This document shows, in pieces, positions 36,126-60,410 of a DNA stretch of 64,000 nt. Every line of letters starts with the position of its first letter. The stretch's first letter is position 1. This stretch comes from a bacterium (GTDB lineage Bacteria > Electryoneota > Electryoneia > Electryoneales > Electryoneaceae): positions 8,925 to 72,924 of the forward strand of contig JAIOHU010000287.1 in NCBI GenBank assembly GCA_019912845.1, in the 5' to 3' direction. A program made the position numbers and the translations under genes. The notes beneath the pieces were generated by a model, which ran no database searches, was not told the origin of the DNA, and saw nothing but the letters and a program-made list of their open reading frames with translations.

Positions 36126-36160
36126 AACTACGATTTATCTCGTTCGTAGAGCAGGTGATC

Positions 36161-36190
36161 TTTCCGCAACATCTTCGGATGTTGCGGAAC
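36161..36190. terminator. Perfect 30-bp palindromic hairpin with a UUCG tetraloop (terminator family member)
   Basis: TTTCCGCAACATC-TTCG-GATGTTGCGGAAC. It lies 36 nt after the S8 gene stop and before the next gene. An identical 30-mer occurs at 56368-56397. Confidence 0.45.
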
Positions 36191-36247
36191 TGTTATAGTC
36201 GCTATCTCTACGGTTATAATTTTTTTTTCGCGAAGTCAACATAGCTT

Positions 36248-38726: not shown

Positions 38727-38757
38727 AAAATTCGTTTTCTATATGGGGGAAGTTTTC

Positions 38758-41700
38758 ATGAAAACTCGAATCCTATCCTATTTGATTCTCGTATTGTTCT
38801 TCCTGATTCCATCTTCTGGTTTCGCACAGGATAGTCTTGGTATTTCACATGAAAGTATATCCTATTCTTTCTGGGATTATGCTACAGATGCTGCGATCTC
38901 TGGGAATTACGCTTACATCGGTACACGAGAGACCGGGATAAAAGTGGTTGATATCTCTGATATCGCTAATCCCTTTGAAGTTGCGCAGTGTCGTCTAGCT
39001 GGGAATGTGCAACAGGTTGCCATTTACGATGAATATCTTTTTGTGCCATGCGACTATGAGGGTATGTATATTATCGATGTGTCAGTCCCTGAAGACCCGG
39101 AAATTGTCTATCGCTACACACCTCGTCGAGCTTTTGAAGTTACTTTTTATGATCACTACGCATTTGTAACAGTTGTCAGTGATGGTTTCAGCATCCTGGA
39201 TATTACAAATCCTGCAGAACCAGAATTGGTAACCAATGTAAACCCTCCAAACGGTATGGTTAAACATTTAAAACTTACCGAGACCCACGCATTTGTAGGC
39301 AAAAACATTAGCGAAATGTTAATCTACAATATTGAAGATATTGAAAACCCTGTGCAGGTGGGAACAGCAGAACACAATAATACTATCGATGATATGGAAC
39401 TTGTTCAAGAGGACTACCTTTATGCCATCAGTGAGTATGGTCATCTGCAGATATTTAACATAAGTGATCCTGAGAACGTGGAAATGGCTGCTGTATTTGT
39501 AGATTATAACTACACTGAAATGACACAGGCATTCCCATATCTTTTCGTTCGCTCTGGTGATACCTCACAATATGTTCTTGATATTTCTGATCCTCTCAAT
39601 CCGGAAGAAGTTACCTTCCTGGGTAATTTGCCATGGCATCGTGTTGTGATTATTGATGATCAAAATGCAATCGCATGCTCTGGTGAGGATGGCATATTCA
39701 CACTGGATTATCAGAACATTGCAGAGATTGAGGAATTAGGAGTTTATGATACTGAAGGACGAGTATATGGAGTGTGTCTATGGGATCACTACGCTCTGCT
39801 TTCAGGAAAAGACTATGGACTTATGATTGTAGATGTATCAGAACCCTCTAATCCGGTAGAAGTTGGTCACTATCAATCCGAGGGCAGGATCATCAATGTC
39901 GAGGTTATGGATCATTACGCTTTACTCGCCAACCAGGAGCTCGGGCTTGAAATTATCGACATTATTGATCCTGCCAACCCACAATTAGTCAGCCAGTTTG
40001 AGAGCCAGGACGGATATCGCGCAGTTGCAGTGGATGGCAACCTGGTCTTTGTGTCGGGAGGGAATCGTCAAGGGTTGGATATTCTTGACTGTACTGATCC
40101 TGTGAACCCTGAATTACTCTCCAATACCTGGATCGGTTATGAATGCAGGGGAATAGATATACAGGGAAATTACGCTTATCTGGCAATGGCGTACGGTGCA
40201 GTTTCGATTGTTGACATAAGAGATCTGACAAATCCAGAGGTAATCGCAGCTTGGGGTGAAGATACTCATATAGAAGAAATCGTTGCTTACAATGATATTA
40301 TTTTCGCTGCAGAATGGAGCTATGGAGTGACGATGTTGGATGTTTCAGATCCCACAAGGATATTCGAAATTCATCATTTTGATACTGGAGGTAATGTTCG
40401 GGACGTCTTTATTGCCAATGATTTACTTTATGTCGCTTCTGAGGGAACTGGGTTGTATATAATTGACCCCAATGATCCAGATTTTGCTGTTGTTGGGTAT
40501 TATGAAACCATCAATCGTCTGATAACTGTTGTCGCTGATGGACGGTACGCTTACATGGGCGAAAAATTCAGTTTCCAGATTTTTGATTGTGGAGAAGCGG
40601 TTGGATATGATCTAATAGAACGAACGCCACATTATGAAGCTGTTCTTCCTACAAACCGACCCTATTCAATTATCATCAATAATGCAACTTGGAATGAATT
40701 ACCGCTCACCGAAGGAGATGAAATCGGCGTTTTTGATGGGAACCTTTGCGTTGGAGCTGCCATACATGAAGGTGACTTTCCATTGGAAATAACCGTGTGG
40801 GAAGAGAATGAAGCGGAAGGGCTGGGAGGGTTTACTGTCGGTAATGGAATCAGTTTTCTTGTTTGGCAAAGTGAGGCTGAGGCTGAATATCAGGTTGATG
40901 TTGACTGGATTGAGGGGGATGGTTTATTCGGATTTGATCCTCTAACCGTAGCGGAATTAACCCTTCACAATCAACCCCTCCTTCAAATAAACCTGCGTGG
41001 CAACTACCATAACCTGGTTTCCAGCTATCTTGTGCCGGATGAATTGGGGTTTGAAGAGGTATTCGGTGGGATTAATAACCTGCAAATCGTGTATGAGGAC
41101 GAAGGCGATATCTTTATTCCGGGTATTCCTACAGTTGGAGAAGTAGACAACAGAGAAGGTTACAAGATTTTCACATCTGAACCCTCTACATGGCACACCA
41201 CTGGTACACCTCTGGATCAGGGTATAGAATTCGAATTATTTGCAAATCGTTGGAACTGGCTAGGGTATCCCTTCGGAAATGAACGTCCTCTGGAAACAAC
41301 CCTCAGTGAGATTGAGGATCAGCTTGTTGCGCTTCTGACCGATGACGGTGGCATTTATATCAATAATCCTCCACAATTTGTAATCAACACAATTGGAAAT
41401 CTGGAAGCTGGAAAAGGGTATATGGTTTTTGTAAACGAGGATGTTTCTTTCGAGTATCTTTCTGATACCTGGCTTGAACGTACTCCCACAACACCGCAAA
41501 TAACCGATATTCCTATTGTCGAAGGTGCCCCTGAACCTACCGGATTACCCTATGTTGTTGTCATCTCGAACTATGAACATCTGGCTGATAAATCAACCAT
41601 TGTCGAGCTTTACGATGGTGAAATACTGGTCGGGAAAGGGCTGTTACTGGAGGATCAACCAGTCACACCAATCCTCGCCTGGCAGGGGGACAGCGAACAC

Positions 41701-42132
41701 AACATGATCGGATTTGAGCCTGGTAATCCGATTCACCTCAAGCTCCTGGCAGCCAATGGCGATGTACTGGTGGACCGTATAGTCGAGGGTGTGCAGTACG
41801 GCGACGCCCCTTATGCGCTGCTGGAATTATCAAATATACTTCCTGAACAGTCCGAAGACTTTTCCCTGCCGGGGCATTTTACAGTTCAAAATGCTTATCC
41901 CAATCCGTTCAACTCGACACTATCCATTCCATTTTCACTGCCCCATTCATCGCAGGTAACCATTCAGCTTTATAATGTCCTCGGGCAACTGCAATCTGAA
42001 GCAACCCAGCAGTTTGAAGCAGGAAAACACATCTACTCAATTCAAGGTGAGCAGCTTGTGAGTGGATTGTATTTTCTGAAAGTGGAAATGGAAGGGCAAA
42101 CATTTATGCAGAAAGTGGTGTTGCTCAAATAG
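38758..42132 (+). CDS. LVIVD-repeat beta-propeller surface protein with a C-terminal shared module and a T9SS sorting domain
   Basis: The signal peptide is MKTRILSYLILVLFFLIPSSGFAQ, with GGGGGA 7 nt upstream. At least 12 LVIVD-type repeats are present (VVDISDIANPFEV, IIDVSVPEDPEIV, ILDITNPAEPELV, IFNISDPENVEMA, VLDISDPLNPEEV, IVDVSEPSNPVEV, IIDIIDPANPQLV, ILDCTDPVNPELL, IVDIRDLTNPEVI, MLDVSDPTRIFEI and others). The C-terminus is ..AYPNPFNSTLSIPFSL..IQLYNVLGQL..SGLYFLKV..KVVLLK. Confidence 0.7.
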   Translation: MKTRILSYLILVLFFLIPSSGFAQDSLGISHESISYSFWDYATDAAISGNYAYIGTRETGIKVVDISDIANPFEVAQCRLAGNVQQVAIYDEYLFVPCDYEGMYIIDVSVPEDPEIVYRYTPRRAFEVTFYDHYAFVTVVSDGFSILDITNPAEPELVTNVNPPNGMVKHLKLTETHAFVGKNISEMLIYNIEDIENPVQVGTAEHNNTIDDMELVQEDYLYAISEYGHLQIFNISDPENVEMAAVFVDYNYTEMTQAFPYLFVRSGDTSQYVLDISDPLNPEEVTFLGNLPWHRVVIIDDQNAIACSGEDGIFTLDYQNIAEIEELGVYDTEGRVYGVCLWDHYALLSGKDYGLMIVDVSEPSNPVEVGHYQSEGRIINVEVMDHYALLANQELGLEIIDIIDPANPQLVSQFESQDGYRAVAVDGNLVFVSGGNRQGLDILDCTDPVNPELLSNTWIGYECRGIDIQGNYAYLAMAYGAVSIVDIRDLTNPEVIAAWGEDTHIEEIVAYNDIIFAAEWSYGVTMLDVSDPTRIFEIHHFDTGGNVRDVFIANDLLYVASEGTGLYIIDPNDPDFAVVGYYETINRLITVVADGRYAYMGEKFSFQIFDCGEAVGYDLIERTPHYEAVLPTNRPYSIIINNATWNELPLTEGDEIGVFDGNLCVGAAIHEGDFPLEITVWEENEAEGLGGFTVGNGISFLVWQSEAEAEYQVDVDWIEGDGLFGFDPLTVAELTLHNQPLLQINLRGNYHNLVSSYLVPDELGFEEVFGGINNLQIVYEDEGDIFIPGIPTVGEVDNREGYKIFTSEPSTWHTTGTPLDQGIEFELFANRWNWLGYPFGNERPLETTLSEIEDQLVALLTDDGGIYINNPPQFVINTIGNLEAGKGYMVFVNEDVSFEYLSDTWLERTPTTPQITDIPIVEGAPEPTGLPYVVVISNYEHLADKSTIVELYDGEILVGKGLLLEDQPVTPILAWQGDSEHNMIGFEPGNPIHLKLLAANGDVLVDRIVEGVQYGDAPYALLELSNILPEQSEDFSLPGHFTVQNAYPNPFNSTLSIPFSLPHSSQVTIQLYNVLGQLQSEATQQFEAGKHIYSIQGEQLVSGLYFLKVEMEGQTFMQKVVLLK

Positions 42133-42183
42133 AGAAATCAGTAAAAAGGCTGATCCTTGTGAGTTTTAACTGATGTTCCATTT

Positions 42184-42216
42184 CGCATGATCTTCGGATC
42201 ATGCGGAACTCTTTTT
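42184..42216 (+). terminator. Rho-independent terminator with a UUCG tetraloop
   Basis: CGCATGATC-TTCG-GATCATGCG is a 9-bp perfect stem. GAACTCTTTTTATAC follows. It lies 52 nt after the stop of the LVIVD gene. Confidence 0.6.
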
Positions 42217-43583: not shown

Positions 43584-44732
43584 TCAGTTTGTTATTGATT
43601 TTGTAATAGTAATACCACGTTTGGCAAGTTCGTCAATCATATACCCGCAATCAACTTCCAGCTCCTGGTATAATACACCCCGTTTATTGATGTCTCCACG
43701 CAGAATACTTTGCAGGAAAATGATTCCGGGAAAAGCGGTGCATCGTTGCATGGAGGTCATACGTGAGGATTCGTCGTATTTGTCGTGCATTTCGTAAGTG
43801 ACGGTTTTTGATAAGCCACCCTTTTTACCAGCGACTGTAACACGCATGAGGGTTTCATCGGGCGCGTTCCAGGAGAGGGATTTTTGCAGCATGGTTTCAA
43901 AAAACTGCCTGGGATTGATTTTGCTGGTGCCGATTTTCACTGGCTTTTCGCTGTTGAATCCAATATCGAAGGCAAAACGGATGAGGTTGGCATGACCGGG
44001 ATATCGTATGGTCTTGCAGTCCAGGTTTTTGAGACGATCTCCAAATGTTTTCGGCAACGTAGACACACCACCTGAGGTATAAAACGCCTCAAATTCCCTG
44101 TTATCAAACTGAAGTGTTTCCAATCCGGTCATGGAAGGGTGAGTTTTAATTTCACCGTTTTCCATGACTACACTCTCTTCGAGATATTCGTTGGTCAATC
44201 CACGTACACTGAAAAGCAGGCTGTAGTTCAGTGGCGGCTCCGGTTTTAAAGGAAGCCCACCCACACGGATATTCGCGGTTACTGCCTCATCCAGTTCATT
44301 TACACCTCCAGCGACCAGAATGCCGGCAAGCCCGGGAGTCAACCCGGTATCCGGTACAATACTTACACCAGCATCAACCGTTTCTTTCTGGTAGCGGTGT
44401 TGCGTGTTCACGATATCGTGGTTGCCACCAAAATCAATCGTATGGCACCTGTTTTTAATTGCACTATTTAAGAAGTAAAGATTGAGAGAGTAATCAGCAG
44501 CCAATACTGCTCCATCAGCCTCTCGGAAAACACTGTCCACTTTGCTTTCATCATCGAATTTGAAACAACGTGTGCTCTTTTCGCCTAACCCGAGATATTC
44601 GGCGGCAGTGGTCAATGTTTCCTGATCTCCATCACAAAGGATGACCTCAAATCCCTGTTGCAAAGAGTCTCGTGCAGCCGCAACACCCTGCCTGCCGGAG
44701 CCTAAAATCGCGATTTTCTTTTTTGAACTCAT
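43584..44732 (-). CDS. Saccharopine dehydrogenase-family NAD(P)-binding protein
   Basis: The N-terminal Rossmann block is KKIAILGSGRQGVAAARD. The 382-aa length and a C-terminal Sacchrp_dh-like region fit the family. The substrate is unknown. It is separated by 4 nt from the acyltransferase gene, so the two are probably co-transcribed. Confidence 0.55.
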   Translation of the reverse strand: MSSKKKIAILGSGRQGVAAARDSLQQGFEVILCDGDQETLTTAAEYLGLGEKSTRCFKFDDESKVDSVFREADGAVLAADYSLNLYFLNSAIKNRCHTIDFGGNHDIVNTQHRYQKETVDAGVSIVPDTGLTPGLAGILVAGGVNELDEAVTANIRVGGLPLKPEPPLNYSLLFSVRGLTNEYLEESVVMENGEIKTHPSMTGLETLQFDNREFEAFYTSGGVSTLPKTFGDRLKNLDCKTIRYPGHANLIRFAFDIGFNSEKPVKIGTSKINPRQFFETMLQKSLSWNAPDETLMRVTVAGKKGGLSKTVTYEMHDKYDESSRMTSMQRCTAFPGIIFLQSILRGDINKRGVLYQELEVDCGYMIDELAKRGITITKSITN

Positions 44733-44870
44733 TGAACGATATCCCCATTCATCTCTAAGTGTGCTTCACAATTTTGATCTATACTGAATCCTGGAATTAT
44801 TGTCTTATGCTACTAAACAGCTAAATGTTAGTGTTGTTCGGATTTCCGCCTTCCAATCAGTCCCGAAATC

Positions 44871-44947
44871 AACAATAGTAATACCTTCCTGGATACCAGC
44901 TAACACCGCGCTGGCATGACGCACTCGGGCAATACTTTCGAAAAACG
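44871..44947 (+). repeat. Intergenic repeat element family A, copy 1 (hairpin TACCAGC-N9-GCTGGCA)
   Basis: CAATAGTAATACCTTCCTGGATACCAGCTAACACCGCGCTGGCATGACGCACTCGGGCAATACTTTCGAAAAACG. It ends exactly at the stop codon of the minus-strand lipoprotein gene. Confidence 0.5.
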
Positions 44948-44949
44948 AT

Positions 44950-45852
44950 TTATTCACGCGTCATGTAAAATCTGGCTTCCACTTTTGATACAGCTCCAAA
45001 AATCCCGAGACCGCCATGGATATTTGATTCCTGTTTTTCGGTTAATCCCTGACGCATCCTGAAGGATGAAAACAGGAAATCATAGTATTCTGGAGAAACC
45101 GCAAGTATACCAATCCGGTATTCTCCAATCCAACGAAACAAAAACCAGGGAATGGTGACAACCTGTTGATCCTCTCTAAATACAGAGTAGCCACCCCGGT
45201 TTGGATTATCAGGATTTGTATCACCGAATTCACCCACATCCCACTCTGGATCGAGTGGAATCAGCTCCGGCGAAAGAGACAAGACAAAATAGCTGTAACC
45301 GCCAGCATATTCCACCGGTTGCCAGCCAATTTTAATCTCCTCATGCCCAAGAGTTAAAAGCTCCGCTTCCAACTCCCAGAAGGGCTGAACTTCCACCGTA
45401 TCTGGAGCATTGTGCGGATTTAACCAGACAACGCTATCCATTTTACCGGGTACTGTTGTTTTAGCCCAGAGAGAATCAGTTCCTGTCACCGTTGTAAGCA
45501 ATAATTCCTGACCGGATTGTGGCGTGATGCCACCGCCGACCGGTATATACACTCCACTACTATCCGGGTGAGGGTGATCCTGAAATGCAAAAGAATCGAC
45601 GATAACGCCTTCCTCACAAGTGTACACATTAACATCCGCACCAGCTATTCCTTGCTGTGAGAAACTGTAATAAACATCGATAGAGGCAACTCTTTCGAGA
45701 TAGACTCTCTCCAATGGTTCGCCATTACAGGGAAAGGCACTCAAGACCAGTTGTGACTCATAGTCCTCCACCTCTGACGGTTGTGTGGAACAACCTCCCA
45801 GAATGAGGTGGAATAAAAAAATTGCAAATAGAATGAGTTGACTGGATTTCAA
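44950..45852 (-). CDS. Lipoprotein of unknown function (bracketed by two copies of repeat family A)
   Basis: The ORF track starts at TTG 45909. A more plausible start is TTG at codon 20 (45850-45852), preceded by AGGAA, which gives (M)KSSQLILFAIFLFHLILGGC, a signal peptide with a lipobox. No recognisable catalytic motifs are present. Confidence 0.4.
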   Translation of the reverse strand: MKSSQLILFAIFLFHLILGGCSTQPSEVEDYESQLVLSAFPCNGEPLERVYLERVASIDVYYSFSQQGIAGADVNVYTCEEGVIVDSFAFQDHPHPDSSGVYIPVGGGITPQSGQELLLTTVTGTDSLWAKTTVPGKMDSVVWLNPHNAPDTVEVQPFWELEAELLTLGHEEIKIGWQPVEYAGGYSYFVLSLSPELIPLDPEWDVGEFGDTNPDNPNRGGYSVFREDQQVVTIPWFLFRWIGEYRIGILAVSPEYYDFLFSSFRMRQGLTEKQESNIHGGLGIFGAVSKVEARFYMTRE

Positions 45853-45905
45853 GTTGTTCCTGTTGGTTTGTGAGGTATGTTGTTGTCGTTCTTCAATGGA
45901 ATATT

Positions 45906-45975
45906 TCAATACCTTCCTGGATACCAGCTAAGAGCATGCTGGTATGACGCAATCGGACTATACTATCGAGAAACG
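45906..45975 (+). repeat. Intergenic repeat element family A, copy 2 (hairpin TACCAGC-N9-GCTGGTA)
   Basis: TCAATACCTTCCTGGATACCAGCTAAGAGCATGCTGGTATGACGCAATCGGACTATACTATCGAGAAACG. It is in the same orientation as copy 1 and lies ~55 nt upstream of the lipoprotein gene. Confidence 0.5.
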
Positions 45976-46187
45976 CTATTTATTTGAGAAACACTGGAGT
46001 ATGAATAATACAATTCATTTCCTGAATCTTCAATGATTTCCTTGTTTCGGTTTTCTCGCTTCTTCCTTGTTTGATATCAGAAAAATACCCCCACAAAACA
46101 TCGTGGGGGTATTCATATTACTGAATATCACTGGTTCAATACAAACTCGAAAGATCGTATCGAGTGATATTTATGTACGAGACAACC

Positions 46188-49100
46188 TTACTTCAGCAGA
46201 GTAATCTTCTGAGTAAAGGTCTGACCGTTAAACTGCGTGGTCAGGAAGTACACACCAGAAACCAGTTCGGTACCAGAACGATTCGCATCGAATACGAAGC
46301 GGTGGAAGCCAGCCTGGAAATGCTGGGATGTATTGAATACCTGCTGACCGAGAACATTATACACTGCGAAGCTGACTTCACCGTTCATCGGAAGTGCAAA
46401 CGGAATGGTCACACTTGGGTTGAATGGATTCGGATAGCCCTGGTCGACCGCGAACTCTGTTGGAACTGGTGCGACATCGAGGTTCAACAGGGTGTATGCA
46501 CCCTTGCCGAACTCCGGTGCATCATCGTTCATATGAACGACTGGTAGCACAGTACCATCAGCCGCTTTGACCACAAAGCGCATTGAATTGCCACTGATGA
46601 AACCTTCGAGATTACGATCAGCATCACCCTGCCATGCAGTTACCGGTGTGTAATCGCGATCATCAAGGATAACACTCTTACCTACAAGAGTCTTGCCATC
46701 ATAAAGTTCGATGATTGCAGGGTTTAATTCCTGAAGATCATCGCTCATGCTGAGCACGACTGTGTAAGGAAGACCTGTTGCTTCTGGAGCACCTTCAACC
46801 GCTGGGATATCCCAGACATCATGCTTGGTGTTTCCTGCGGCAACAGCATCATTGTAAGTGAAGTCAACAGCTTCATTCACGAAGAACATGTACCCTTCAC
46901 CAGGGGTCATATCACCAATTGTGTTAATGTCAAACAGTGGTGGAATCCATACGCCACCATCATCAGTCTGCACAATTTCTACGAAATCACGAATGTGATT
47001 CAGTGCTTCAATTGTGTTGACATCATGGTTGAATGGATAGCCAACCCAGTTCCAACGATTCGGGACAGCATGATATTCGGTATCGGTTGGAATAGGATCA
47101 CCAACAAAGGTAACCATGGAGTTTGCATCACAGAATAGACGATAACCCTGATCCATGGAAATATCAACGATGGTATTGATGAACGGCGGAATTACAATGC
47201 CACCATCATTCTGATAAGCAATTGCGAGATCTGGAATACCACCAAAGATATCCATGGCATTCAGACTTTCTGGTTGAATGTAAGATGAAATTAATTCGAA
47301 ATAGTTACCCTGAAGCGGTATTTCGAGTTCATTATCAGGTTGAATTTCACCTTCACCCCTTACAGTCAATCTGGAGTACGGTGCATAACCAAAGGTACCA
47401 TCACCCTGGGTATATTCAGCTTCTGCATCCATGATTTCACCAGTTACACTATTCCAAATCTGGAAAGTCATAGTGTTGCCAGGTGTAAATCCTGGGAATG
47501 CAGGATCTTCGGACATTTCCCATGCGATAAGCGAACGTGGGTATTGACCATTCATAGCAGTCGCACCGACACAAAGATCACCATCATATACAGCAACACC
47601 GGAGCCGGCTGGTAGAGGATTGTCGCCCTCAAAAGCACCATCGAGAATCAGTGAGTAAGGCAGACCATTCGGATCTACCGGGTTAAAGATTCCACCAGCA
47701 CCATAAATAAGTGTTACCCATACTGTTGCAATTTCACCTTGATGATGATTTGGATCAATTTCGATCAGCGCTTCGTAAGAACCTTCTGCCATTTCAAGAT
47801 CGGTTACATCTGCGATCAAGTCGACATCCATTTCTTCACCGATAGGAATTAAACCATCACCCGGTTCAACTGTCAACCAGCCACCTTGACCAGCATAAAG
47901 GGTAGCGTAGGCAATTGTGTTACCAAGAATATCTGCATTTACCCAGTCAAGAATCCAGCCGATTTCCCACGTCATGGTTGATATGAGAATCGTACCACGT
48001 CCCATTTCCATTTCGACCAGGGTTGGCTGACCGAGAGAAGTGGTTGCAAGAATATTTGCATCTTCTGGAACATCATTGATGATATCATGTGAGTCAGAAC
48101 CACCAGTCCACTGCTCTGGAATGTTCATCATGATTCCATGTTCTGGCATATTGTTAAAACCAGTACCACTTGGCGCATAGGTATTGCTCATGCCCCAGAG
48201 GTTCCAGGTATATGCCTGTGTACATCCACCGAAGATAATCCAGCCACCATCATCCATGAAGTCGAGGAAACGTTCCTCATTATCTTGAACTGTATTCAGG
48301 AAGTTCTGACTTTGAACGTTCGTGAAGATGATACAAGAGTATTCACCGAGATCATGATTAGCCATCTGTCCTGAATTGATGATGTCATAAGGCACTTCCA
48401 TTGCATCAAGGAAGGCTTGGTGTGCAGGAGCACCCCAGGCATCAGTGTCTTGAATAATCAGGAAGTAAGGATCATCCAGCTCATTTGTATATGGAGCTGT
48501 TGGGATACTCGGATATGCGTTAATATCTGTGGATGGTGCATGATTGAAATCTACCGCACCTTTAGCCAGCGTACGATTAAGAATGTAATCACGCGCATTT
48601 TCACGCATCGTGTTAACTTCTTCTTCTTCAATGTAGACAACACTTGCATCCCAATCCATATCCAAGCCACCTGCGTTTCCGATGGTCAGAACATCTGAAT
48701 CTGTATCGCCTTCTTCCGGGATGACAAATATAAACTCATTCGGGTTCAGGGTAACAAACGGTGGAATATGATGGTCAATTTCGATATCCAGAGTCGTTGT
48801 CTCACCTTCGATGAGCGCAACTGTCATGATATCTGAGGCATAATAATCAGCAGCCGTTGCCTGTACATCCCAGTCACCTGTACCTAATGGATAGGCATAG
48901 TAACCATTTTCATCAGTTTCAACTTCAGCAACTGGTTCTTCCAGGTCACCCCAGATTGTTACCAGTGCACCTTCGACAGGATCGCCAGTTTCATTGTCAC
49001 TGACAACACCTTCCAGTGTACCTGGATCACCAATAAGGAAAGTTACCCAGACAGTTACAGGATCAAGTGTATCTGGCCATGCAACATTAAAGTCGATGGT

Positions 49101-52100
49101 AGCTTCATAAACACCAGGAAGCTCAGCATCAATCGCATTGGCAAGAACATCAATCTCAACTGTTTCATCAATGTCGAGGTGTCCGCTATTCGGCTCAATT
49201 GCCAGCCAGCCACCCGCGCCGGAGGCGACTAAGAGCGCGTTCGCCATGAGACGATCACAATCAGTTGCCGGGTTCCAACCACCATTGATAGCATCATTAG
49301 AGGGTGGGAAGAGACCTAATGCAACAGTAATACCGTTGTCCATCTGGTCACGGACCGCTGCAACCGCACGTCCATCACCCCAGTCAGCAATACGAAGCGC
49401 TTCGGGATGGACATCAAAAGTTGACTGACGATAGGAAGAGGTACCACCATCTAGTTCTTCGATTTCTTCCATCATCAGGTGGTTCGCTTCAAAAACTTCA
49501 CCTAATGTCTGCTGCGGACCATATTGGTTTCCTGATGGCGGGAATGCATAATAACCTTCAGCATTCCAACGACCCTGCATATAAACACCGGCTGATTCGA
49601 ATACAGCATGAACAACGCCGTAGCCTTCATCAACATAGTCAGCCATTACATTGCCAACGCCGATGTAATCCAGATAGCCGTAGTTTGTCCAAGTCATTAC
49701 CGCATCGAATTCCATCAGTTCTTCTAGACTGGGTAAAACATTACGCGCATCAACAATCGTAATAGTTTCAAAGAGTTCTAATGCTGCCAACTTGTTTGCA
49801 ACATCATCTTGATAAATTACATCGTCAGCCGGATAAAGCAGAATATTCGCATTATCAAGCTCACCATTTCCATCAATTACGCGTGCGATTTGATCTGGAC
49901 GAGTTACAACGTCCGGACCGTTGGCACCAAGCGTGGTTGCTAATGGATAATTGGTAATTGGACCATCAAGAATACCAGAACGTGCGATCCAGTTCTCGAC
50001 AACCGCTTCTCTACGTGCTTGCTCATTGTTACCACGTGCTGCAATTTCATCTTCAATATAGGTAATGCTGCCAGACCAATCGGCTGGCAAACCACCGATA
50101 TTGCTGAGCGTCAGGATATCACTGTCTGAACCAAGCCAACCCGCTTCAAAATCAAAGAATTCGGGATCAACTACGAGTTCAGGTGCAACTTCGTGGACCA
50201 ATGCGATATCGTGAACTGTTGCCTCACCTTCAATAACTGCAGCAGTTTCGATGTCAGACGGATAATAACCCATCGCATCTGCCATCACATCCCATTCACC
50301 CGTTCCGAGTGGGTAGGTGTAAAAACCTTCTGCATCTGTTTCAACTTCAGCTACTGGTTCTTCGAGGTCACCCCAGATTGTTACCAACGCACCTTCGATT
50401 GGATCACCTGAGTCTACGTCATAGACAATACCTTCAAGAGAGCCGGGATCGCCAACATTCATGGTTACCCATGAAGTTACCAGAGCACCTTCTTCTGTGC
50501 CATCATTATACCAGACATCAATTGAAGCTTCATAGATACCAGGAAGGTCTACATTTGAAGCATCAACAGTTACATCGAGATCCATAATGCCAGCGGGTTC
50601 AACAGTTCCAGCATCAGGTTCAACTGTCAACCAGTTGCCAGAGCCAACCCACAACGCATCGTATTCAATCATGTTGTGCATGATGTCGCCAGCAACCTGA
50701 CCAGCACCTACACCATATTCAAGCGTCTGGGTGCTGACAATCATGTTACCACCGCCATAAGGCAGTTCAAGAAGAACTGGACGCTGTTGTGTATCTACGC
50801 AAAGAATCAAGGCATCTTCAGGAACATTGTCAATCCAGCCATGATTTGCGGACCCACCAGTGTAATTTTCAGGAATGCCTTCCATCATTGGATGGTCAGG
50901 CATCACGACCTGGTTATTGCCATCGCCTTGATGCACATAGTTCATGTCATTCCAGAATGTCCAGGTCGCCCCTTGAGTACAACCGTGGAATTCGAGACAA
51001 CCACCGCCATCAACCCACTCTTCAAAGCGATCAGCATTGTTCATGAAGTTGTTGTAAAAACCCTGACCCTGGGTGGATGGGATCATGATAACATTGTATT
51101 CTTCCGCTTCAAAGTCGTAGTCTGCCATTGACGCAGAGTTGACCAGGTCGAAAGGAATACCAAGTTCGTTCAGATAATCTTGATGTGAATTATTCCAGGG
51201 AATCTGATCCTGGAACAACAGGAAGTAAGGATCATCAAGTTCACTGAATTGAGGTTCGGTAGGAACAACATTGAAGATATCACTTGACGGACCGTTGTAT
51301 TCAATTGTGGTACCACGAGTTGCACGGAAATTAGCTGCATTTTCGCGTACCATTCTACGGAAGTCCATAATTTCTTCATCTTCGATGTAGGTAATGTCGA
51401 CCCAGAAATCGATGTCGGCACCACAATCGCCAAGATGTGTAACTGTAAGGATATCAGAATCGGACGCAAGCCAACCCACATCAAATGTGAATTGATCGGG
51501 GTCCACCATGAGTTCTGCCAGTGGATCCATTTCGATATCCACAACATTTTCGCCTTCTTCCAGCACGACATCCACTTCAGTCAAGGCGAAGCCTTCAGCC
51601 ATTGCACGAGCAGTGTAGCCACGTGAATAGACGCCTTCAATCATGTAGTAACCATCTGCATCGGTGGTTGCCATCTGGTTACCGAAGTATACTTCAGCAC
51701 CCTCAACAGCATCCCCATCACATGCATCAGTCACAACACCTTCAACCGAAGCGTTGGGATCTGCGAATCCACCTTCATTGATAGTGAATCCAACTGCGGT
51801 TTCAGCTTGGGGGGTATTGCCGGCATTGTTGTAGCAATATTCAAGACCGTCAGTACCTTCAGCATTTTCAATACCGATGGTAACAAAGTCCCGGTTAAGG
51901 TTGGGAGTCATGCTGTGGTATTGAATCACGATATCGCCAGATTCATACAAAAGGATTTCTGCATTGATATTTTCTTGATCCGGACCATCTGGGTATTCAT
52001 CCCAGTCGACAAACTGAATAACGGTAAAGTCACCCATATTTTCAATGTAAGCCATACCATCATCGCCAGCGTCTGGATCCATATCACGCCACCACCAGGC

Positions 52101-52592
52101 AATCAGGTTGTTTGGTGCCCAGTTTGATGGAAGTGTCTGGTTGCCAAGGTCCCACATGGCATCTTCAGAAAAACCGATCATACCATTGGAGCCGAGGAAA
52201 AACTGATCGTATGTGTTGCCATAAAACTCAAAATCAAATCCAAGAGCGAAAGGACCTGTATAGTCATCGTCAAATGGAATGGCTAGTGCTTCACCGGTTT
52301 CGGTGATATCAAGCCAATCATAGGCAGGACCATTTGCCTCATCGCTGTCAAAATAATAATAACCAAAGTTATCTGGACCGCCGGTGCGGTCAAGCTCATT
52401 ATGGCCTTCAACAATAACGCCAGCAAAAGTGAGAATTTCATGCTGACGTTCAGTCAACTGATTCCCAAGTTTGTAAGCGTTAATTGCTTGCTTGTATTCA
52501 TCGTAACGTGAATCCTTCAGGGTGGTGTTATCTACCGCAAAGGCAGCCGTTACAAGGAAAGCTAGCAAAAGCAGTACTGAAGCAACTCTCAT
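46188..52592 (-). CDS. Giant (2134 aa) modular T9SS-secreted surface protein with a triplicated internal module and a C-terminal module shared with the LVIVD protein
   Basis: The signal peptide is MRVASVLLLLAFLVTAAFA. There are three copies of a ~440-470-aa unit (a CarbopepD_reg-like start EGVVTD../EGIVYDVDSGDPIEGALVTIWGDL../EGVVSDNETGDPVEGALVTIWGDL.. followed by a ..ELDDPYFL..DGGG..HGCTQ.. domain). The C-terminal ~420 aa are homologous to the LVIVD protein. The tail ..QGYPNPFNPSVTIPFAL..VYNVLGQQV..SGVYFLTT..KITLLK is a T9SS domain. Confidence 0.75.
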   Translation of the reverse strand: MRVASVLLLLAFLVTAAFAVDNTTLKDSRYDEYKQAINAYKLGNQLTERQHEILTFAGVIVEGHNELDRTGGPDNFGYYYFDSDEANGPAYDWLDITETGEALAIPFDDDYTGPFALGFDFEFYGNTYDQFFLGSNGMIGFSEDAMWDLGNQTLPSNWAPNNLIAWWWRDMDPDAGDDGMAYIENMGDFTVIQFVDWDEYPDGPDQENINAEILLYESGDIVIQYHSMTPNLNRDFVTIGIENAEGTDGLEYCYNNAGNTPQAETAVGFTINEGGFADPNASVEGVVTDACDGDAVEGAEVYFGNQMATTDADGYYMIEGVYSRGYTARAMAEGFALTEVDVVLEEGENVVDIEMDPLAELMVDPDQFTFDVGWLASDSDILTVTHLGDCGADIDFWVDITYIEDEEIMDFRRMVRENAANFRATRGTTIEYNGPSSDIFNVVPTEPQFSELDDPYFLLFQDQIPWNNSHQDYLNELGIPFDLVNSASMADYDFEAEEYNVIMIPSTQGQGFYNNFMNNADRFEEWVDGGGCLEFHGCTQGATWTFWNDMNYVHQGDGNNQVVMPDHPMMEGIPENYTGGSANHGWIDNVPEDALILCVDTQQRPVLLELPYGGGNMIVSTQTLEYGVGAGQVAGDIMHNMIEYDALWVGSGNWLTVEPDAGTVEPAGIMDLDVTVDASNVDLPGIYEASIDVWYNDGTEEGALVTSWVTMNVGDPGSLEGIVYDVDSGDPIEGALVTIWGDLEEPVAEVETDAEGFYTYPLGTGEWDVMADAMGYYPSDIETAAVIEGEATVHDIALVHEVAPELVVDPEFFDFEAGWLGSDSDILTLSNIGGLPADWSGSITYIEDEIAARGNNEQARREAVVENWIARSGILDGPITNYPLATTLGANGPDVVTRPDQIARVIDGNGELDNANILLYPADDVIYQDDVANKLAALELFETITIVDARNVLPSLEELMEFDAVMTWTNYGYLDYIGVGNVMADYVDEGYGVVHAVFESAGVYMQGRWNAEGYYAFPPSGNQYGPQQTLGEVFEANHLMMEEIEELDGGTSSYRQSTFDVHPEALRIADWGDGRAVAAVRDQMDNGITVALGLFPPSNDAINGGWNPATDCDRLMANALLVASGAGGWLAIEPNSGHLDIDETVEIDVLANAIDAELPGVYEATIDFNVAWPDTLDPVTVWVTFLIGDPGTLEGVVSDNETGDPVEGALVTIWGDLEEPVAEVETDENGYYAYPLGTGDWDVQATAADYYASDIMTVALIEGETTTLDIEIDHHIPPFVTLNPNEFIFVIPEEGDTDSDVLTIGNAGGLDMDWDASVVYIEEEEVNTMRENARDYILNRTLAKGAVDFNHAPSTDINAYPSIPTAPYTNELDDPYFLIIQDTDAWGAPAHQAFLDAMEVPYDIINSGQMANHDLGEYSCIIFTNVQSQNFLNTVQDNEERFLDFMDDGGWIIFGGCTQAYTWNLWGMSNTYAPSGTGFNNMPEHGIMMNIPEQWTGGSDSHDIINDVPEDANILATTSLGQPTLVEMEMGRGTILISTMTWEIGWILDWVNADILGNTIAYATLYAGQGGWLTVEPGDGLIPIGEEMDVDLIADVTDLEMAEGSYEALIEIDPNHHQGEIATVWVTLIYGAGGIFNPVDPNGLPYSLILDGAFEGDNPLPAGSGVAVYDGDLCVGATAMNGQYPRSLIAWEMSEDPAFPGFTPGNTMTFQIWNSVTGEIMDAEAEYTQGDGTFGYAPYSRLTVRGEGEIQPDNELEIPLQGNYFELISSYIQPESLNAMDIFGGIPDLAIAYQNDGGIVIPPFINTIVDISMDQGYRLFCDANSMVTFVGDPIPTDTEYHAVPNRWNWVGYPFNHDVNTIEALNHIRDFVEIVQTDDGGVWIPPLFDINTIGDMTPGEGYMFFVNEAVDFTYNDAVAAGNTKHDVWDIPAVEGAPEATGLPYTVVLSMSDDLQELNPAIIELYDGKTLVGKSVILDDRDYTPVTAWQGDADRNLEGFISGNSMRFVVKAADGTVLPVVHMNDDAPEFGKGAYTLLNLDVAPVPTEFAVDQGYPNPFNPSVTIPFALPMNGEVSFAVYNVLGQQVFNTSQHFQAGFHRFVFDANRSGTELVSGVYFLTTQFNGQTFTQKITLLK

Positions 52593-53456
52593 CAGGTATC
52601 TCCTTGTGGTTATGAAAACGAAATCAAGTTCAGTTCATAGTGATCTGCGACTTTCGTTAACGTAGAGTATCTCATTCAAGTGTTCGAGAGTAAACCCTCA
52701 AACGGGAAAGAGAATTTAAATAATTTTGGGAATATCTTCGATTAACAAGAATACGGGGGGTATGCACTCGAAAGTTCTCGAATCATTTACCAGCCTGCAC
52801 TAGTCATACTGATTAGTGCCTCGATCTGCTGAACACACCTCCCCCGCTTCCTTGCAGGGAAATTTTCAGCAAATCGTTTGATCAATCTGTTATCATCCCA
52901 TGGATGATACTGATCGGGCTAAATAAACGATTTGGAGTCGCCACTATATGCGGAGACTTCAACTTGGTGATCTACAGGCGTTACAACGCCCTAATTTCGT
53001 ATATCAGAAGGGCTAACGCAAGTATCTTCTGTTTATATTTAAAGGTCGTAAAGATCGAACAACTCTCTCCTGGTGCAGGAGTAATAAGCTAACATAAACA
53101 ATAACAGGTAATAAGAAGCTGACCTTTCCAGCGCTCTATGATTTAATACCCCTTAGGCTCCAAGAGCCGCTCTTTTGTTCAGGAGAGATTTGTGAATCGT
53201 AACAGTCTTCCTATATGTCTAAAACTTCAATCTGGAGTATTCTCCTGAAATACTTTAGTTAATCACTACGCAAAACTTCGTGCTATCCATAAGAGGGGCA
53301 TTAGGCAAACAAGCTGATTGCTCTTTACATATTGATACTATTTTAATTTTAAGGGAACGAATATTGCAGAAAATTGTTTAAGAGCTATATTGCACATCTG
53401 AAGTTTACTTGTTGTGATATTAATCGCAGAAGTGCTTTTAACCTAAGGAGAAAAAT

Positions 53457-53945
53457 ATGAAACGTTTCATGCTACCATTATTGGTTCTCGGACTGATATT
53501 CCTGGCAATCCCTCAATTCGCTGCGGCTCATTGTGGAAGTTGTGGTGTTGGTGGAGAGAAAGCTGGGCATGATAAAGCTGCCATGTGTAAAGTGAGTGAA
53601 GATGGCAAGGCAAAAGGCGCGACCATGGGTGCCATTTATGAATCCAGTGAGTTGTACCATTGTTCTGTACACAGCATTGTCTCAGACAACCCCGAAGCCA
53701 AGTGCCCGTCATGTGATGCGAAACTAGCGAAAATGACCGACAAGGAAGTCGCGGAGCTTCAGAAAGGTCAGGCAGTTGGTTGCCCAATGTGTCCGGTTGT
53801 AATGGATGCTGATAAAGTTGCCAAGGAAGACCAGAAGTGTGGTTTTTGCAAGATGCAGCTTCAGGAAATCGAACATGGTGAAGGTAAAGACCATAAACAC
53901 CATGATCATCATGGTCATGAGATGGAAATGAAGAAGAAAAGCTGA
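53457..53945 (+). CDS. Secreted tandem heavy-metal-binding-domain (HMBD, YxCxxH..CPxCxxxL) protein with a His-rich tail; putative periplasmic Cu/Zn metallochaperone
   Basis: The signal peptide is MKRFMLPLLVLGLIFLAIPQFAAA, with AAGGAG 7 nt upstream. HMBD-like units are ..YHCSVHSIVSDNPEAKCPSCDAKL.. and ..VGCPMCPVVMDADKVAKEDQKCGFCKMQL.., plus an N-terminal HCGSCG. The C-terminus is ..HGEGKDHKHHDHHGHEME. Confidence 0.55.
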   Translation: MKRFMLPLLVLGLIFLAIPQFAAAHCGSCGVGGEKAGHDKAAMCKVSEDGKAKGATMGAIYESSELYHCSVHSIVSDNPEAKCPSCDAKLAKMTDKEVAELQKGQAVGCPMCPVVMDADKVAKEDQKCGFCKMQLQEIEHGEGKDHKHHDHHGHEMEMKKKS

Positions 53946-53969
53946 AGATTTGTTTGATTGAATAGTTAA

Positions 53970-54001
53970 CGCCGGGCACCAAAAGTATCCGGCGTTTTTT
54001 A
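53970..54001 (+). terminator. Rho-independent terminator
   Basis: CGCCGG (53970-53975) pairs with CCGGCG (53989-53994) around a 13-nt loop, followed by TTTTTT. It lies 25 nt after the metal-binding protein gene. Confidence 0.6.
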
Positions 54002-54097
54002 TATGCTGATTCTTGAAATTATTGTCTCACCATAAAGCTGTTAAGTGTTTATGCTGTCTGGATTCCCTCCTGCGGTTTTTTCTAAAACAATTAAAAT

Positions 54098-54165
54098 CAA
54101 TACCTTACTGGACACCAGCTAACACCACGCTGGTATGACGCAATCAGACAATATTTTCGAGTATA
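54098..54165 (+). repeat. Intergenic repeat element family A, copy 3 (hairpin CACCAGC-N9-GCTGGTA)
   Basis: TCAATACCTTACTGGACACCAGCTAACACCACGCTGGTATGACGCAATCAGACAATATTTTCGAGTATAGC. It lies between the 3' ends of two convergent genes. Confidence 0.5.
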
Positions 54166-54205
54166 GCTCTAGAGTATTCGGAATTCCTTAATCGGCACCA
54201 TTACT

Positions 54206-55108
54206 TCAAGACGAAATTTTTGCTGCAAACTGGTATTCCTCTGCCAACAGTGTATTTTTAAGCAGAAGTGCTACGGTCATCGGACCGACACCACCGGGAA
54301 CCGGTGTGATCAATGAAGCTTTCGGTTGAACTTCATCAAACGCTACATCCCCTGTAAGGCGATACCCACGTTTTTTCGTGCTGTCTTCTACGCGATTCAC
54401 GCCAACATCAATTACCACTGCACCCTCTTTTACCATATCCGCTGTGATCATTTCGGGACGACCTATTGCTGCGACAAGGATATCCGCCTGACGTGTCATC
54501 GCTCCCAGGTCTTTTGTGCGACTGTGACAGATTGTTGTGGTTGCATTACCACCTCTCGCTTTTTGTGAAAGAAGCAGCGCCATAGGCATCCCGACAAGAT
54601 GACTGCGTCCCACGACAACAGCATGTTTTCCGGATGGATCGACATTGTAACGCTCTAATAGTTCAAATACTCCAAGTGGTGTGCAGGGCACAAAACGTCT
54701 CTGACCAAGTGTTAAGAGTCCAACATTCTGTGGATGGAACCCGTCTACATCCTTCATCGGGTTTATGGCACGAACCACAGCGTCCTCGTCCAATCCATCT
54801 GGAAGCGGTGATTGCACAAGCAACCCGTTGTAGTCAGGATTATTGTTGATCTCTTCAACCTTCGCCATCAGCTCGGTCTGGGTGGTTTCAGCGGGCATTC
54901 TTTCGATCAGACTGCGCATGCCTACTTCTTCACATGCTTTCTTTTTCATATTGACATAAACTTTTGATGCCGCATCTTCACCGACCAGGATCAATGCCAG
55001 CCCGGGTTGCCTGCCAGCATTCAACCTCTTCTCTACCGCGTCCTTGACTTCCTGACGTATATCAGTAGCAACACTTTTTCCATCAATCAGATTGTTCATT
55101 TCAGTCAC
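54206..55108 (-). CDS. folD: Bifunctional methylenetetrahydrofolate dehydrogenase / methenyltetrahydrofolate cyclohydrolase
   Basis: ..IDGKSVATDIRQEVKDAV..PGLALILVGEDAASKVYVNMKKKACEEVGM.. and ..GKHAVVVGRSHLVGMPMALLL..ATTTICHSRTKDL.. are the conserved FolD blocks. The length is 300 aa. Confidence 0.9.
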   Translation of the reverse strand: MTEMNNLIDGKSVATDIRQEVKDAVEKRLNAGRQPGLALILVGEDAASKVYVNMKKKACEEVGMRSLIERMPAETTQTELMAKVEEINNNPDYNGLLVQSPLPDGLDEDAVVRAINPMKDVDGFHPQNVGLLTLGQRRFVPCTPLGVFELLERYNVDPSGKHAVVVGRSHLVGMPMALLLSQKARGGNATTTICHSRTKDLGAMTRQADILVAAIGRPEMITADMVKEGAVVIDVGVNRVEDSTKKRGYRLTGDVAFDEVQPKASLITPVPGGVGPMTVALLLKNTLLAEEYQFAAKISS

Positions 55109-55113
55109 GGCTA

Positions 55114-56043
55114 TTACTCCAGTGTTTTTCGATAAGCTGTTGAATAGAGTGTAAATATCATAAAATCAAAAATTAATTCCTGCCAGGGAAATTTATCATT
55201 CGAGACAACCATACGGTTAACCAGATTATAAACATTCTGTCTGCACAACAAACGCACAGCACTATTTTTAAGCAACTGTGATACAGATTCTGCCTTGAGA
55301 GGATTCTCCAAATAGTTCAGGCTTAACATTTCGTAAGCCTGGGGGTGACGATCCAATATCATTGGGATCACTTCACGTCCATAAATCCGATAACGCCTTT
55401 CCATCTCTGTCCACTCAGGCTTGTGAAAATGCCACGCTTTTGCGCGGGGTTCATGATACAACTTCATGCCATGCTCTTCAAGACGTAAACCAAACTCCAA
55501 ATCTTCCCCACCCCATGCCTTGAAAGCTCTGTCAAACCCACCGGAGTCACGTGCGATTTTCGCTGGTAGTGCGGAGTTGGCTGCGGTAAAATATTTTCCC
55601 GGAATCTCACATCCACCTTGAATTTTTGCAGCTCCTCTCGAATGATAATAACGCATGTAAGCAGTCATTGGGAGTGATGGATGAAGTCCCAGTTTTCCAA
55701 CCAGAATGCCACCTGATTCGCTAACACCTCGCACCATCATCTCCAGCCAGCAGGTAGCTGGAACCATATCTGCATCCAGGAAAACTATAATCTCACCGCG
55801 CGCTATCTCAATTCCCTTGTTCCTCGCAGCCGCTCGTCCACGGTTCTCCTGAAATACGTTTGTTACAATGTTCAAGGAGGATTCATTCGAGGTAATTTCT
55901 TCAGGTAGTGGAGATTGTGAGCCATCATCAATAATGATCCATTCGAAATTATCGAGTGGGAAGGTTTGTGATTGAAGTGCTGTCTTCAGTTGCAGCAGGG
56001 TATGGTGAGAATTATAGTGAGGTGTGATTATTGATGCTTTCAT
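55114..56043 (-). CDS. Family 2 glycosyltransferase (GT2)
   Basis: The N-terminal GT2 block MKASIITPHYNSHHTLL.. is followed by ..IIIDDGS.. and the DxD-type ..FLDADMV.. motif. The start was set at Met11 of the ORF-track frame because the GT2 motif normally lies at the extreme N-terminus. Confidence 0.7.
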   Translation of the reverse strand: MKASIITPHYNSHHTLLQLKTALQSQTFPLDNFEWIIIDDGSQSPLPEEITSNESSLNIVTNVFQENRGRAAARNKGIEIARGEIIVFLDADMVPATCWLEMMVRGVSESGGILVGKLGLHPSLPMTAYMRYYHSRGAAKIQGGCEIPGKYFTAANSALPAKIARDSGGFDRAFKAWGGEDLEFGLRLEEHGMKLYHEPRAKAWHFHKPEWTEMERRYRIYGREVIPMILDRHPQAYEMLSLNYLENPLKAESVSQLLKNSAVRLLCRQNVYNLVNRMVVSNDKFPWQELIFDFMIFTLYSTAYRKTLE

Positions 56044-56159
56044 AGGGAGAAAAACCTGGTAAGATGCTTTCACTCTTTCATAGGCTGTATGAGAATGAAT
56101 TACATCAGATTTATTCAGATCAATTGTGGATGTTTTTATTTTCTAACACTAATAATATC

Positions 56160-56225
56160 AACAACTTCCTGGGTTCCAGCTAAAACCACGCTGGAATGAC
56201 GCGGTCGGCAACAGCATTCTGGAAC
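56160..56225 (+). repeat. Intergenic repeat element family A, copy 4 (hairpin TTCCAGC-N9-GCTGGAA, compensatory variant)
   Basis: CAACAACTTCCTGGGTTCCAGCTAAAACCACGCTGGAATGACGCGGTCGGCAACAGCATTCTGGAAC. The stem changed from TACCAGC/GCTGGTA to TTCCAGC/GCTGGAA while keeping its pairing. Confidence 0.5.
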
Positions 56226-56367
56226 AACCTGCTTAATGTAATTGATTTAGCGTTATTGCGAATCAAAACGAATAGGTTCCGCAACATCCGAAAAACTCAA
56301 GCAATGGAAGTATTAGACCCTGGATAAATCCAGGGCCAATCTGCTTTTCAAAGTGAATCCTTCACTC

Positions 56368-56397
56368 GTTCCGCAACATCCGAAGATGTTGCGGAAC
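56368..56397 (-). terminator. Perfect 30-bp palindromic hairpin with a UUCG tetraloop on the minus strand (terminator of the outer-membrane barrel gene)
   Basis: GTTCCGCAACATC-CGAA-GATGTTGCGGAAC is identical to the 36161-36190 element. It lies ~50 nt past the stop (56446) of the minus-strand gene. A half-copy lies at 56277-56299. Neighbouring small hairpins lie at 56318-56337 and 56352-56366. Confidence 0.45.
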
Positions 56398-56445
56398 TGA
56401 ATTTTACTCTTCAAATGTACGCGCTATCTAAAAAGTTGGCACTAT

Positions 56446-60134: not shown

Positions 60135-60410
60135 TCGCGACTGAATTCGGTAGCGTCTTTGTCATTGTGAATGCAGACTTTCTATTCTATTGGACTTGGG
60201 GTTGGCATTGGATTTATCCAATGTTTAATAGAGGACGACTGGAATTATTAGACTTTGGACAAGTCCAAAGCCAGTTATTAAAACATCTGAGTTGATTCAG
60301 TAGTGAAGCAATCACTTCCACAAAACACATAGATTGCTTTGTCGCTACGCTCTCGCGCAATGACGCAACGACAAGGGTATTGCTTAAGATGCCAGCAAAT
60401 GCCCTGCCGT

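Follow-up and report, generated by a model that had tools for sequence, protein, structure and literature searches.

The closest described systems are two overlapping groups of short palindromic repeats. The first comprises the Ssn-related motifs (SRMs), which generalize the NTS repeats of Neisseria and represent single-stranded DNA (ssDNA) recognition sites of SsnA-family GIY-YIG nucleases; they are retrieved with the search pattern HGTCWYN(0-2)YYVSBRHN(0-5)WNVSBRGN(0-2)RNCYNB (Chenal et al., Nat Commun 2025, PMC11893778). For Neisseria SsnA, cutting depends on the three nucleotides located 5' of the palindrome (GTC), and binding on the C that immediately follows its 3' end (PMC11893778). The second group comprises the CGTC-tagged repetitive extragenic palindromic (REP) elements, known from Bacteroidetes, Chlorobi, and Proteobacteria, in which a CGTC tag precedes a stem of 8-9 bp beginning with AT, followed by a 3-nt CCA tail; with few exceptions, the loop measures 4-5 nt (Di Nocera et al. 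2013, PMC3733652). Here, five intergenic repeats are analyzed in a 64,000-nt stretch of DNA (127.7-kb contig JAIOHU010000287.1, locus-tag prefix K8I28, positions 8,925 to 72,924; hereafter, the window) of an uncultured Calditrichota-like bacterium of the FCB group, whose nearest named relatives are Calditrichota (54-71% identity). Sequence comparison establishes these repeats as members of the CGTC-tagged REP superfamily. The broader reading, i.e., that they represent SRMs operating with an Ssn-type mechanism of hairpin recognition and cleavage, is held with a probability of about 0.75. Hence, the locus offers a new host and a variant with a long loop and extended flanks, and not a new kind of element; the family itself dates from 2013, and its function was reported in 2025.

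The search with the core pattern CCAGCT.A.A.C..GCTGG.ATGACG revealed five matches on the plus strand of the window (starts at 44896, 45924, 54115, 56176, and 63372) and none in 100 dinucleotide shuffles. An unbiased repeat search recovered the same family as four 72-nt copies (44878-44949, 45906-45977, 54097-54168, and 56158-56229) and a 50-nt match at 63359-63408. No sixth copy was found by a covariance-model scan of the whole window with the filters off, where the next score was 13.5 bits vs. 42-54 bits for the five copies. The strand proposed as functional is the minus strand of the window, on which the 33-nt cores are as follows: CGTCATGCCAGCGCGGTGTTAGCTGGTATCCAG for copy 1 (44889-44921, in a unit spanning ~44859-44949), CGTCATACCAGCATGCTCTTAGCTGGTATCCAG for copy 2 (45917-45949, unit ~45887-45977), CGTCATACCAGCGTGGTGTTAGCTGGTGTCCAG for copy 3 (54108-54140, unit ~54078-54168), CGTCATTCCAGCGTGGTTTTAGCTGGAACCCAG for copy 4 (56169-56201, unit ~56139-56229), and CGTCATTCCAGCGTGGTTTAAGCTGGAATCCAT for copy 5 (63365-63397, unit ~63340-63420). 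All of them are intergenic, share a single orientation, and lie inside 18.5 kb. Since copies 1 and 2 reappear unchanged when two other sequencing runs are assembled independently (L113, L117), they are not an assembly artefact. The dispersed intergenic family reported in the initial annotation is therefore genuine, as follows from the empty shuffles and the independent repeat search, and the five copies in one orientation and in varied contexts were confirmed by both searches and the gene map. The scans of metagenomes with lineage-specific patterns gave no match, and the core sequence strings used as a literature query returned only unrelated primers.

The minus-strand core of each copy can be written as CGTC-AT-N-CCAGC-(9 nt)-GCTGG-N'-AT-CCAG. 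From the 7-bp stem with a 9-nt loop described initially, the loop length holds in all five copies, but the stem comprises 8 bp (AT-N-CCAGC). The compensatory change noted at the same time, TACCAGC/GCTGGTA in copies 2-3 vs. TTCCAGC/GCTGGAA in copies 4-5, is present in the alignment. Imperfect pairs are encountered in copy 1 (a single G.T wobble as read on the minus strand, corresponding to an A.C mismatch on the plus strand), copy 3 (one T.G wobble, in the AT part of the stem), and copy 4 (an A.C mismatch at the terminal pair). In an alignment of 46 distinct 33-mers, including the 5 window copies and 41 foreign copies, 99.7% of the stem cells form standard pairs. Double-sided changes are present at three stem pairs: pair 7:27 displays all four Watson-Crick combinations (UA 26, CG 8, GC 6, and AU 5, along with a single GU), and pair 10:24 is represented by AU 38, CG 4, and GC 4. 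The observed covariation score was reached by 0/500 shuffles, and slid registers pair just 11-42%. As the seeds fixed CCAGC/GCTGG and the sequences are mutually related, the independent evidence is confined to columns 5-7 with 27-29 and to the secondarily found CCGGC and CCCGC variants. The energy of the hairpin fold is ordinary in comparison with shuffles (z from -0.4 to -1.4), so the structural case stands on covariation; it is this evidence, together with the alignment of the copies, which bears out the initial suggestion that the hairpin is kept by compensatory changes. GC skew, considered as a guide to the replication strand, was uninformative because it tracks gene orientation here.

The assignment to the family is carried by several lines of evidence. 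The SRM pattern matches five of the five copies, each on the minus strand, with no further match in the 64 kb; in shuffles (n=100), the matches averaged 0.22 and did not exceed 2. Of the four features by which CGTC-tagged REPs are defined, three are present, namely the unpaired CGTC tag, the 8-bp stem with AT first, and the CCA tail. None of the 46 aligned cores, window copies included, varies in columns 1-4 (CGTC) or in column 30 (C). The covariance model R2, constructed from the 41 non-window copies, retrieves exactly five sites in the window with scores of 41.7, 53.7, 42.5, 43.5, and 50.3 bits (copies 1 to 5, respectively), the next best being 13.5. The scans against Rfam returned no match at any copy, either at the gathering threshold or at E up to 10, in line with the initial expectation. 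On the other hand, the novelty claimed at that stage on the grounds that no known REP consensus was matched is withdrawn: a match to a known REP family had been named beforehand as the finding which refutes it, and every minus-strand copy fits the SRM pattern and three of the four CGTC-REP features.

The core is also encountered beyond the window genome. Applied to one genome per species, a loose pattern based on the window sequence yielded 112 loci, about half of them chance matches in GC-rich coding DNA. About 50 loci carry the hairpin within a larger motif, CTGGAT-N-CCAGC-TAAAAGCAY-GCTGG-N'-ATGACG, which includes positions left free by the pattern and whose reverse complement starts with CGTCAT and ends with ATCCAG. 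The likeness at the pattern-fixed positions is circular, since the pattern was derived from the window; the pattern-free parts conserved in the foreign cores are the 5' AT-N, the tail, and the loop (RTG.T.TTA). The hosts of the 33-nt core belong to Gamma-, Beta- and Zetaproteobacteria, Myxococcales, Nitrospirota, and Desulfobacterota, and the foreign copies adjoin unrelated genes in five or more phyla. In three of these loci (L009, L030, L034), a gene for a single-domain GIY-YIG protein of 96-101 aa (PF01541) is directly flanked by the same core variant, an arrangement equal to the published SRM-ssn-SRM layout. One more locus (L083) harbors the canonical 28-nt short-loop form along with the 33-nt form. 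In Undibacterium, the 3' flank is also conserved but differs from that of the window.

The foreign loci displayed further arrangements of the repeat. In several metagenome-assembled genomes of Pseudomonadota and Desulfobacterota (L008, L011, L051, L101, L105), an SRM with a CCGGC stem and one with a CCAGC stem are joined tail to tail as dimers; these share a conserved upstream module, GGGACTTnGAA...AAAGTACCGTTTAT, faintly resembling the upstream flank of the window copies, TCGAAAGTATTG.CCG. In four loci (L006 at ~5110-5170, L042 at ~6960-7020, L099 at ~350-432, and L009 at ~2493-2560), a full SRM is followed by one or two tandem 5' halves (e.g., CGTCATCCCAGCATGC repeated), in L009 directly beside the GIY-YIG gene; such halves may result from slippage or represent iterated binding sites. 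In Vibrio breoganii (L088, 512-910), (GGGTTCT)n follows each of three SRM units arranged in tandem at distances of 165-207 bp, and in a representative of Desulfocapsaceae (L034, ~6165-6200), (CAATGA)n adjoins the SRM that flanks the GIY-YIG gene.

The NTS, a subset of the Neisseria dRS3 repeats with the consensus CGTCATTCCCGCGMAVGCGGGAATCYRG, have the same architecture as the window copies (CGTC tag, stem starting with ATTCC-, tail C-Y-R-G); like them, the window copies are intergenic, clustered, and arranged as direct copies bracketing genes ('NTS-gene-NTS'). The differences concern the loop (9 nt vs. 4 nt in the NTS), the stem (CCAGC vs. CCCGC), and the flanks, which in the window lineage are conserved over ~25-35 nt on each side of the core. 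In addition, the loop of the long-loop variant is conserved across phyla, whereas Neisseria SsnA tolerates loop changes. With the families CGTC-1 to -4 (PMC3733652), the window repeats share the intergenic location, mostly between unidirectional or convergent genes, and the existence of subfamilies differing by complementary stem residues. At the same time, those families are mostly head-to-head dimers, whereas all five window copies are singletons in one orientation. Due to its 9-nt loop, the element fits the CGTC superfamily but none of the four families as defined. A looser likeness links it to the Neisseria dRS3/NIMEs and the BIMEs of E. coli, where a palindromic unit is joined to other modules at gene-block boundaries (in the window, the modules D5 and D6, see below); unlike these, the window mosaics are small, with one SRM per intergenic region and no arrays of alternating units. 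GTAG-tagged REPs/REPINs with RAYT (TnpA-REP) and IS200/IS605 hairpins are likewise short ssDNA hairpins with an asymmetric unpaired tag; a small nuclease recognizes them in a strand-specific manner, and the repeats flank the gene of this nuclease. Here, the tag is CGTC, not GTAG, the enzyme is of the GIY-YIG and not of the HUH/Y1 type, and no RAYT association is known for CGTC repeats.

According to the proposed mechanism, the palindrome would fold into a hairpin whenever the minus strand becomes single-stranded, i.e., during replication, repair, or uptake of transforming DNA. An Ssn-family endonuclease (cd10448), small and with GIY-YIG as its single domain, would bind the hairpin along with its asymmetric tags and cleave this single strand at a distance of a few nucleotides, 5' of CGTC. 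Where genes lie between two direct copies, the stretch of homology offered by incoming ssDNA would thereby be reduced and recombination modulated, an effect documented for direct NTS pairs around genes in Neisseria (PMC11893778). The repeats probably spread together with the nuclease gene in the SRM-ssn-SRM layout. By analogy with this system, the host is expected to possess a cognate Ssn, which would cleave the five sites and influence recombination in their vicinity.

Several points weigh against this reading. The fourth CGTC-REP feature is missing: instead of 4-5 nt, the loop comprises 9 nt, which is also the upper loop limit of the SRM pattern. No Ssn/GIY-YIG gene was detected in the 64-kb window by hmmsearch of all six-frame open reading frames (ORFs), the best E being 0.28. 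The biology of Ssn has been established in Neisseria only, a naturally competent genus (PMC11893778), and the published model, which calls the flanking region variable, does not explain the conserved flanks of the window copies. Furthermore, the foreign copies were fetched with a window-derived pattern, and the non-Watson-Crick pairs (3 G.T vs. 1 A.C on the CGTC strand) are too few to fix the folding strand.

The gene context of the copies bears on their possible roles. For the most part, the genes in the 42-64-kb section of the window are encoded by the minus strand; many host proteins end in C-terminal sorting domains of the type IX secretion system (T9SS). Read along the minus strand, the first cluster comprises the gene of a 2134-aa T9SS-sorted protein (46188-52592, stop at 46188), a hairpin CCCCCAC...GTGGGGG recognized by eye at ~46084-46105 on the same strand, copy 2, a lipoprotein gene with a DUF4249 domain (44950-45852; PF14054, E 4.9e-13; TTG start and lipobox as read from the ORF), copy 1, module D6, and the gene of a saccharopine dehydrogenase (SacDH) starting at 44732. 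Copy 2 resides 54 nt upstream of the TTG start of the DUF4249 gene, its core being 65 nt before this start at 45852; the unit of copy 1 adjoins the stop codon of this gene, and its core begins 28 nt past the stop. In the second cluster, the gene of a 490-aa protein is followed by the D5 hairpin (56366-56399), copy 4, a minus-strand gene pair encoding a GT2 glycosyltransferase and FolD (GT2-folD, 54206-56073), and copy 3, located 65 nt past the folD stop between convergent genes, the next gene being on the plus strand. Copy 5 occupies a divergent intergenic region between a plus-strand gene starting near 63626 and a minus-strand moaA operon preceded by a molybdenum cofactor (Moco) riboswitch, 276 nt upstream of the latter. 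Copies 1, 2, and 4 have co-directional genes on both sides. The bracketing of the lipoprotein gene by direct copies, pointed out earlier, is borne out by the gene map, and a second unit bracketed in the same way, by copies 4 and 3, is GT2-folD.

Such a context invites the explanation that the element acts mainly as a transcribed RNA hairpin, e.g., by stabilizing the 3' untranslated region (3'-UTR), by weakly terminating transcription, or by regulating the flanking minus-strand genes from the 5'-UTR, in the way put forward for many REPs. Indeed, the genes adjacent to copies 1-4 have the CGTC strand as their sense strand, copies 1 and 3 follow stop codons at 28 and 65 nt with no terminator between, the stem contains G.T pairs, and Di Nocera et al. 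inferred the transcription of many REPs from their location and G.T pairing (PMC3733652). Nevertheless, this explanation is considered unlikely. Copy 5 is located between divergent genes, 276 nt upstream of the riboswitch which starts the moa leader, and is probably outside the sense transcript; copies 2 and 4 lie downstream of separate hairpins (~46084-46105 and 56366-56399, both recognized by eye; a terminator scan found none at the first of them). The fold is weak (z about -1), no T-run follows the hairpin, and Rfam gave no match at the repeats. The invariant unpaired CGTC and C tags are determinants of an enzyme which binds DNA and does not bind RNA (PMC11893778). A side effect at the RNA level, e.g., 3'-UTR stabilization at copies 1 and 3, is possible, but it leaves copy 5 and the invariant unpaired tags unexplained; the reading as ssDNA sites of an Ssn-type nuclease is preferred.

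The origin of the SRM copies can be traced by comparison with relatives. In the relatives with 76-77% FolD identity, GT2-folD is kept, and no SRM occurs in ~20 kb around the orthologues; likewise, no SRM copy was found in ~20 kb around the orthologous gene of a relative with 60% SacDH identity. As far as genome comparison reaches, this establishes the gain of the repeats as recent and specific to the window lineage. In the relatives (L114, L115, L118), SacDH, UvrD-TPR-QRPTase-GH57-DUF4931, and GT2-folD share one neighborhood, from which only SacDH and GT2-folD remain in the window (43584-56073), ~10 kb apart and with lineage-specific genes of surface proteins between them. GT2-folD is the sole block syntenic with the relatives, and the repeats are located at its edges; SRM copies are present at four of the junctions between SacDH/GT2-folD and the lineage-specific surface-protein genes. 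At such a divergence, the link between the repeats and the edges of the rearranged neighborhood is only suggestive. In a distant relative (60% SacDH identity), the equivalent location lacks a DUF4249 gene.

Around the core, the window copies form a local unit of 72-92 nt, with ~25 nt on the 5' and ~15-35 nt on the 3' side; these flanks are lineage-specific. A short direct repeat, GAARGTATTG, flanks the hairpin. Its likeness within a copy is no greater than that between copies, so it is a part of the unit and not a target-site duplication. The regions of copies 1 and 3 align over ~190 nt, including module D6, a 33-nt minus-strand repeat, GACAATAATTCCAAGAATCAGTATAGA. Its first copy (44773-44805) is located ~83 nt downstream of SRM copy 1 and 41 nt upstream of the SacDH start, the second (53995-54027) follows SRM copy 3 and points into the convergent gene, and the third (61397-61429) has no SRM and sits just upstream of the gene starting at 61394. 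Two of the copies are thus 3-41 nt upstream of minus-strand gene starts, and by eye D6 resembles a promoter of the sigma-70 type (GACAAT-N16-TATAGA). Another repeat, D5, is a palindrome, TTCCGCAACATC-TTCG-GATGTTGCGGAA, with a 12-bp stem and a tetraloop, present at 36159-36192, 42178-42211, and 56366-56399. At least two of its three copies lie just past a gene stop codon, the third being between the 490-aa gene and SRM copy 4; it looks like a terminator or another REP-like family. Together, the ~190 nt shared by the regions of copies 1 and 3 and the presence of D6 show that these intergenic regions are small mosaics comparable to NIMEs and BIMEs.

The location of SRMs at the junctions of ancestral and lineage-specific genes, the ~190 nt common to copies 1 and 3, and the conservation of the loop across phyla also hint at a bolder interpretation, in which the long-loop 33-nt subclass would be a distinct, horizontally spreading Ssn/SRM module with the loop itself being recognized. 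Within the window lineage, fusion with flanking modules, the promoter-like one among them, would have given mosaics of 90-190 nt, and the direct pairs would mobilize or exchange the bracketed genes in a cassette-like manner, analogous to attC/IntI or to the peel-and-paste mode of IS200/IS605. Such a scenario is decidedly speculative and improbable in comparison with the reading of the repeats as Ssn-type recognition sites.

It is very improbable that the element represents a MITE (a miniature transposable element with inverted repeats) or an integron-like cassette; a likeness to a cassette or a MITE-bracketed gene had been brought up by the initial annotation. In this reading, a non-autonomous unit would be moved by a classical transposase or integrase with the lipoprotein gene as its cargo. 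The DUF4249 gene and GT2-folD are each bracketed by direct copies, the copies coincide with the edges of the sole syntenic block, and GAARGTATTG flanks the hairpin as a short direct repeat. As for a MITE, however, terminal inverted repeats are absent, and GAARGTATTG belongs to the unit, leaving no target-site duplication. As for a cassette, inspection revealed no GTTRRRY core of attC (intI was not searched for), and folD-GT2 is a housekeeping pair which is adjacent also in the relatives lacking the repeats, so the reading fails for one of the two bracketed units. The 111-nt unit had no blastn match in plasmid and phage collections, and no linked transposase was found for CGTC repeats by Di Nocera et al. 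(PMC3733652); no systematic scan of the window for transposase and integrase genes underlies this rejection.

That CCAGC-N9-GCTGG is an operator bound as double-stranded DNA by a dimeric transcription factor is hardly credible: the palindrome with its 9-bp spacing is indeed intergenic and lies upstream of genes at copies 2, 4, and 5, but the asymmetric flanks (CGTC vs. CCAG) and the single orientation are unsuited to a symmetric dimer, all four Watson-Crick pairs at one position argue for intrastrand pairing and not for half-site recognition, the distance to gene starts ranges from 65 to >270 nt with two copies located 3' of genes, and the same core is found beside unrelated genes in five or more phyla. 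The possibility that the core is a promoter (sigma-54, sigma-70, or extracytoplasmic function type) was also considered and rejected by eye; a consensus scan displayed neither promoter enrichment nor terminators.

Other features of the window were recorded along with the repeats. A weak model match (11 bits) on the minus strand at 60329-60365, CGTCATTGCGCGAGAGCGTAGCGACAAAGCAATCTAT, lies between convergent genes and possesses a CGTC tag and ATTGC...GCAAT arms. Its fold is unconvincing (z -0.36); the match may be due to chance, or the site may belong, in degenerate form, to another CGTC-type family. The Moco riboswitch at 62956-63089 on the minus strand scored 71.6 bits (gathering threshold 36) and precedes the moaA-moaC-MOSC/MoCF operon; since the called ATG of moaA (63025) falls inside the aptamer, the real start is probably further downstream. 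A sub-threshold match to the Rfam osmY RNA (46028-46110, minus strand; 24.9 bits vs. a gathering threshold of 46.9, E 0.051) coincides with the CCCCCAC...GTGGGGG hairpin and hence probably reflects just a terminator-like stem. The 2134-aa protein (46188-52592, minus strand) contains an internal duplication ~1.4 kb apart (48760-49059 vs. 50182-50481, 72% identical), and its C-terminal region resembles that of a 1129-aa protein encoded at 38743-42132 on the plus strand.

Overall, the assignment of the five repeats to the SRM family removes the lead of a 'novel structured RNA' and replaces it with a family whose partner enzyme was characterized in 2025. It extends the range of this family to an uncultured Calditrichota-like bacterium of the FCB group and documents a 33-nt variant with a 9-nt loop common to at least five phyla. 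Each Ssn/SRM pair may be a separate sequence-specific ssDNA nuclease of biotechnological use, so cataloguing the variant motifs and their hosts has some practical value. The clustering of the repeats near surface-protein genes, as in Neisseria, would suggest a role of Ssn in recombination beyond the host-associated Proteobacteria.

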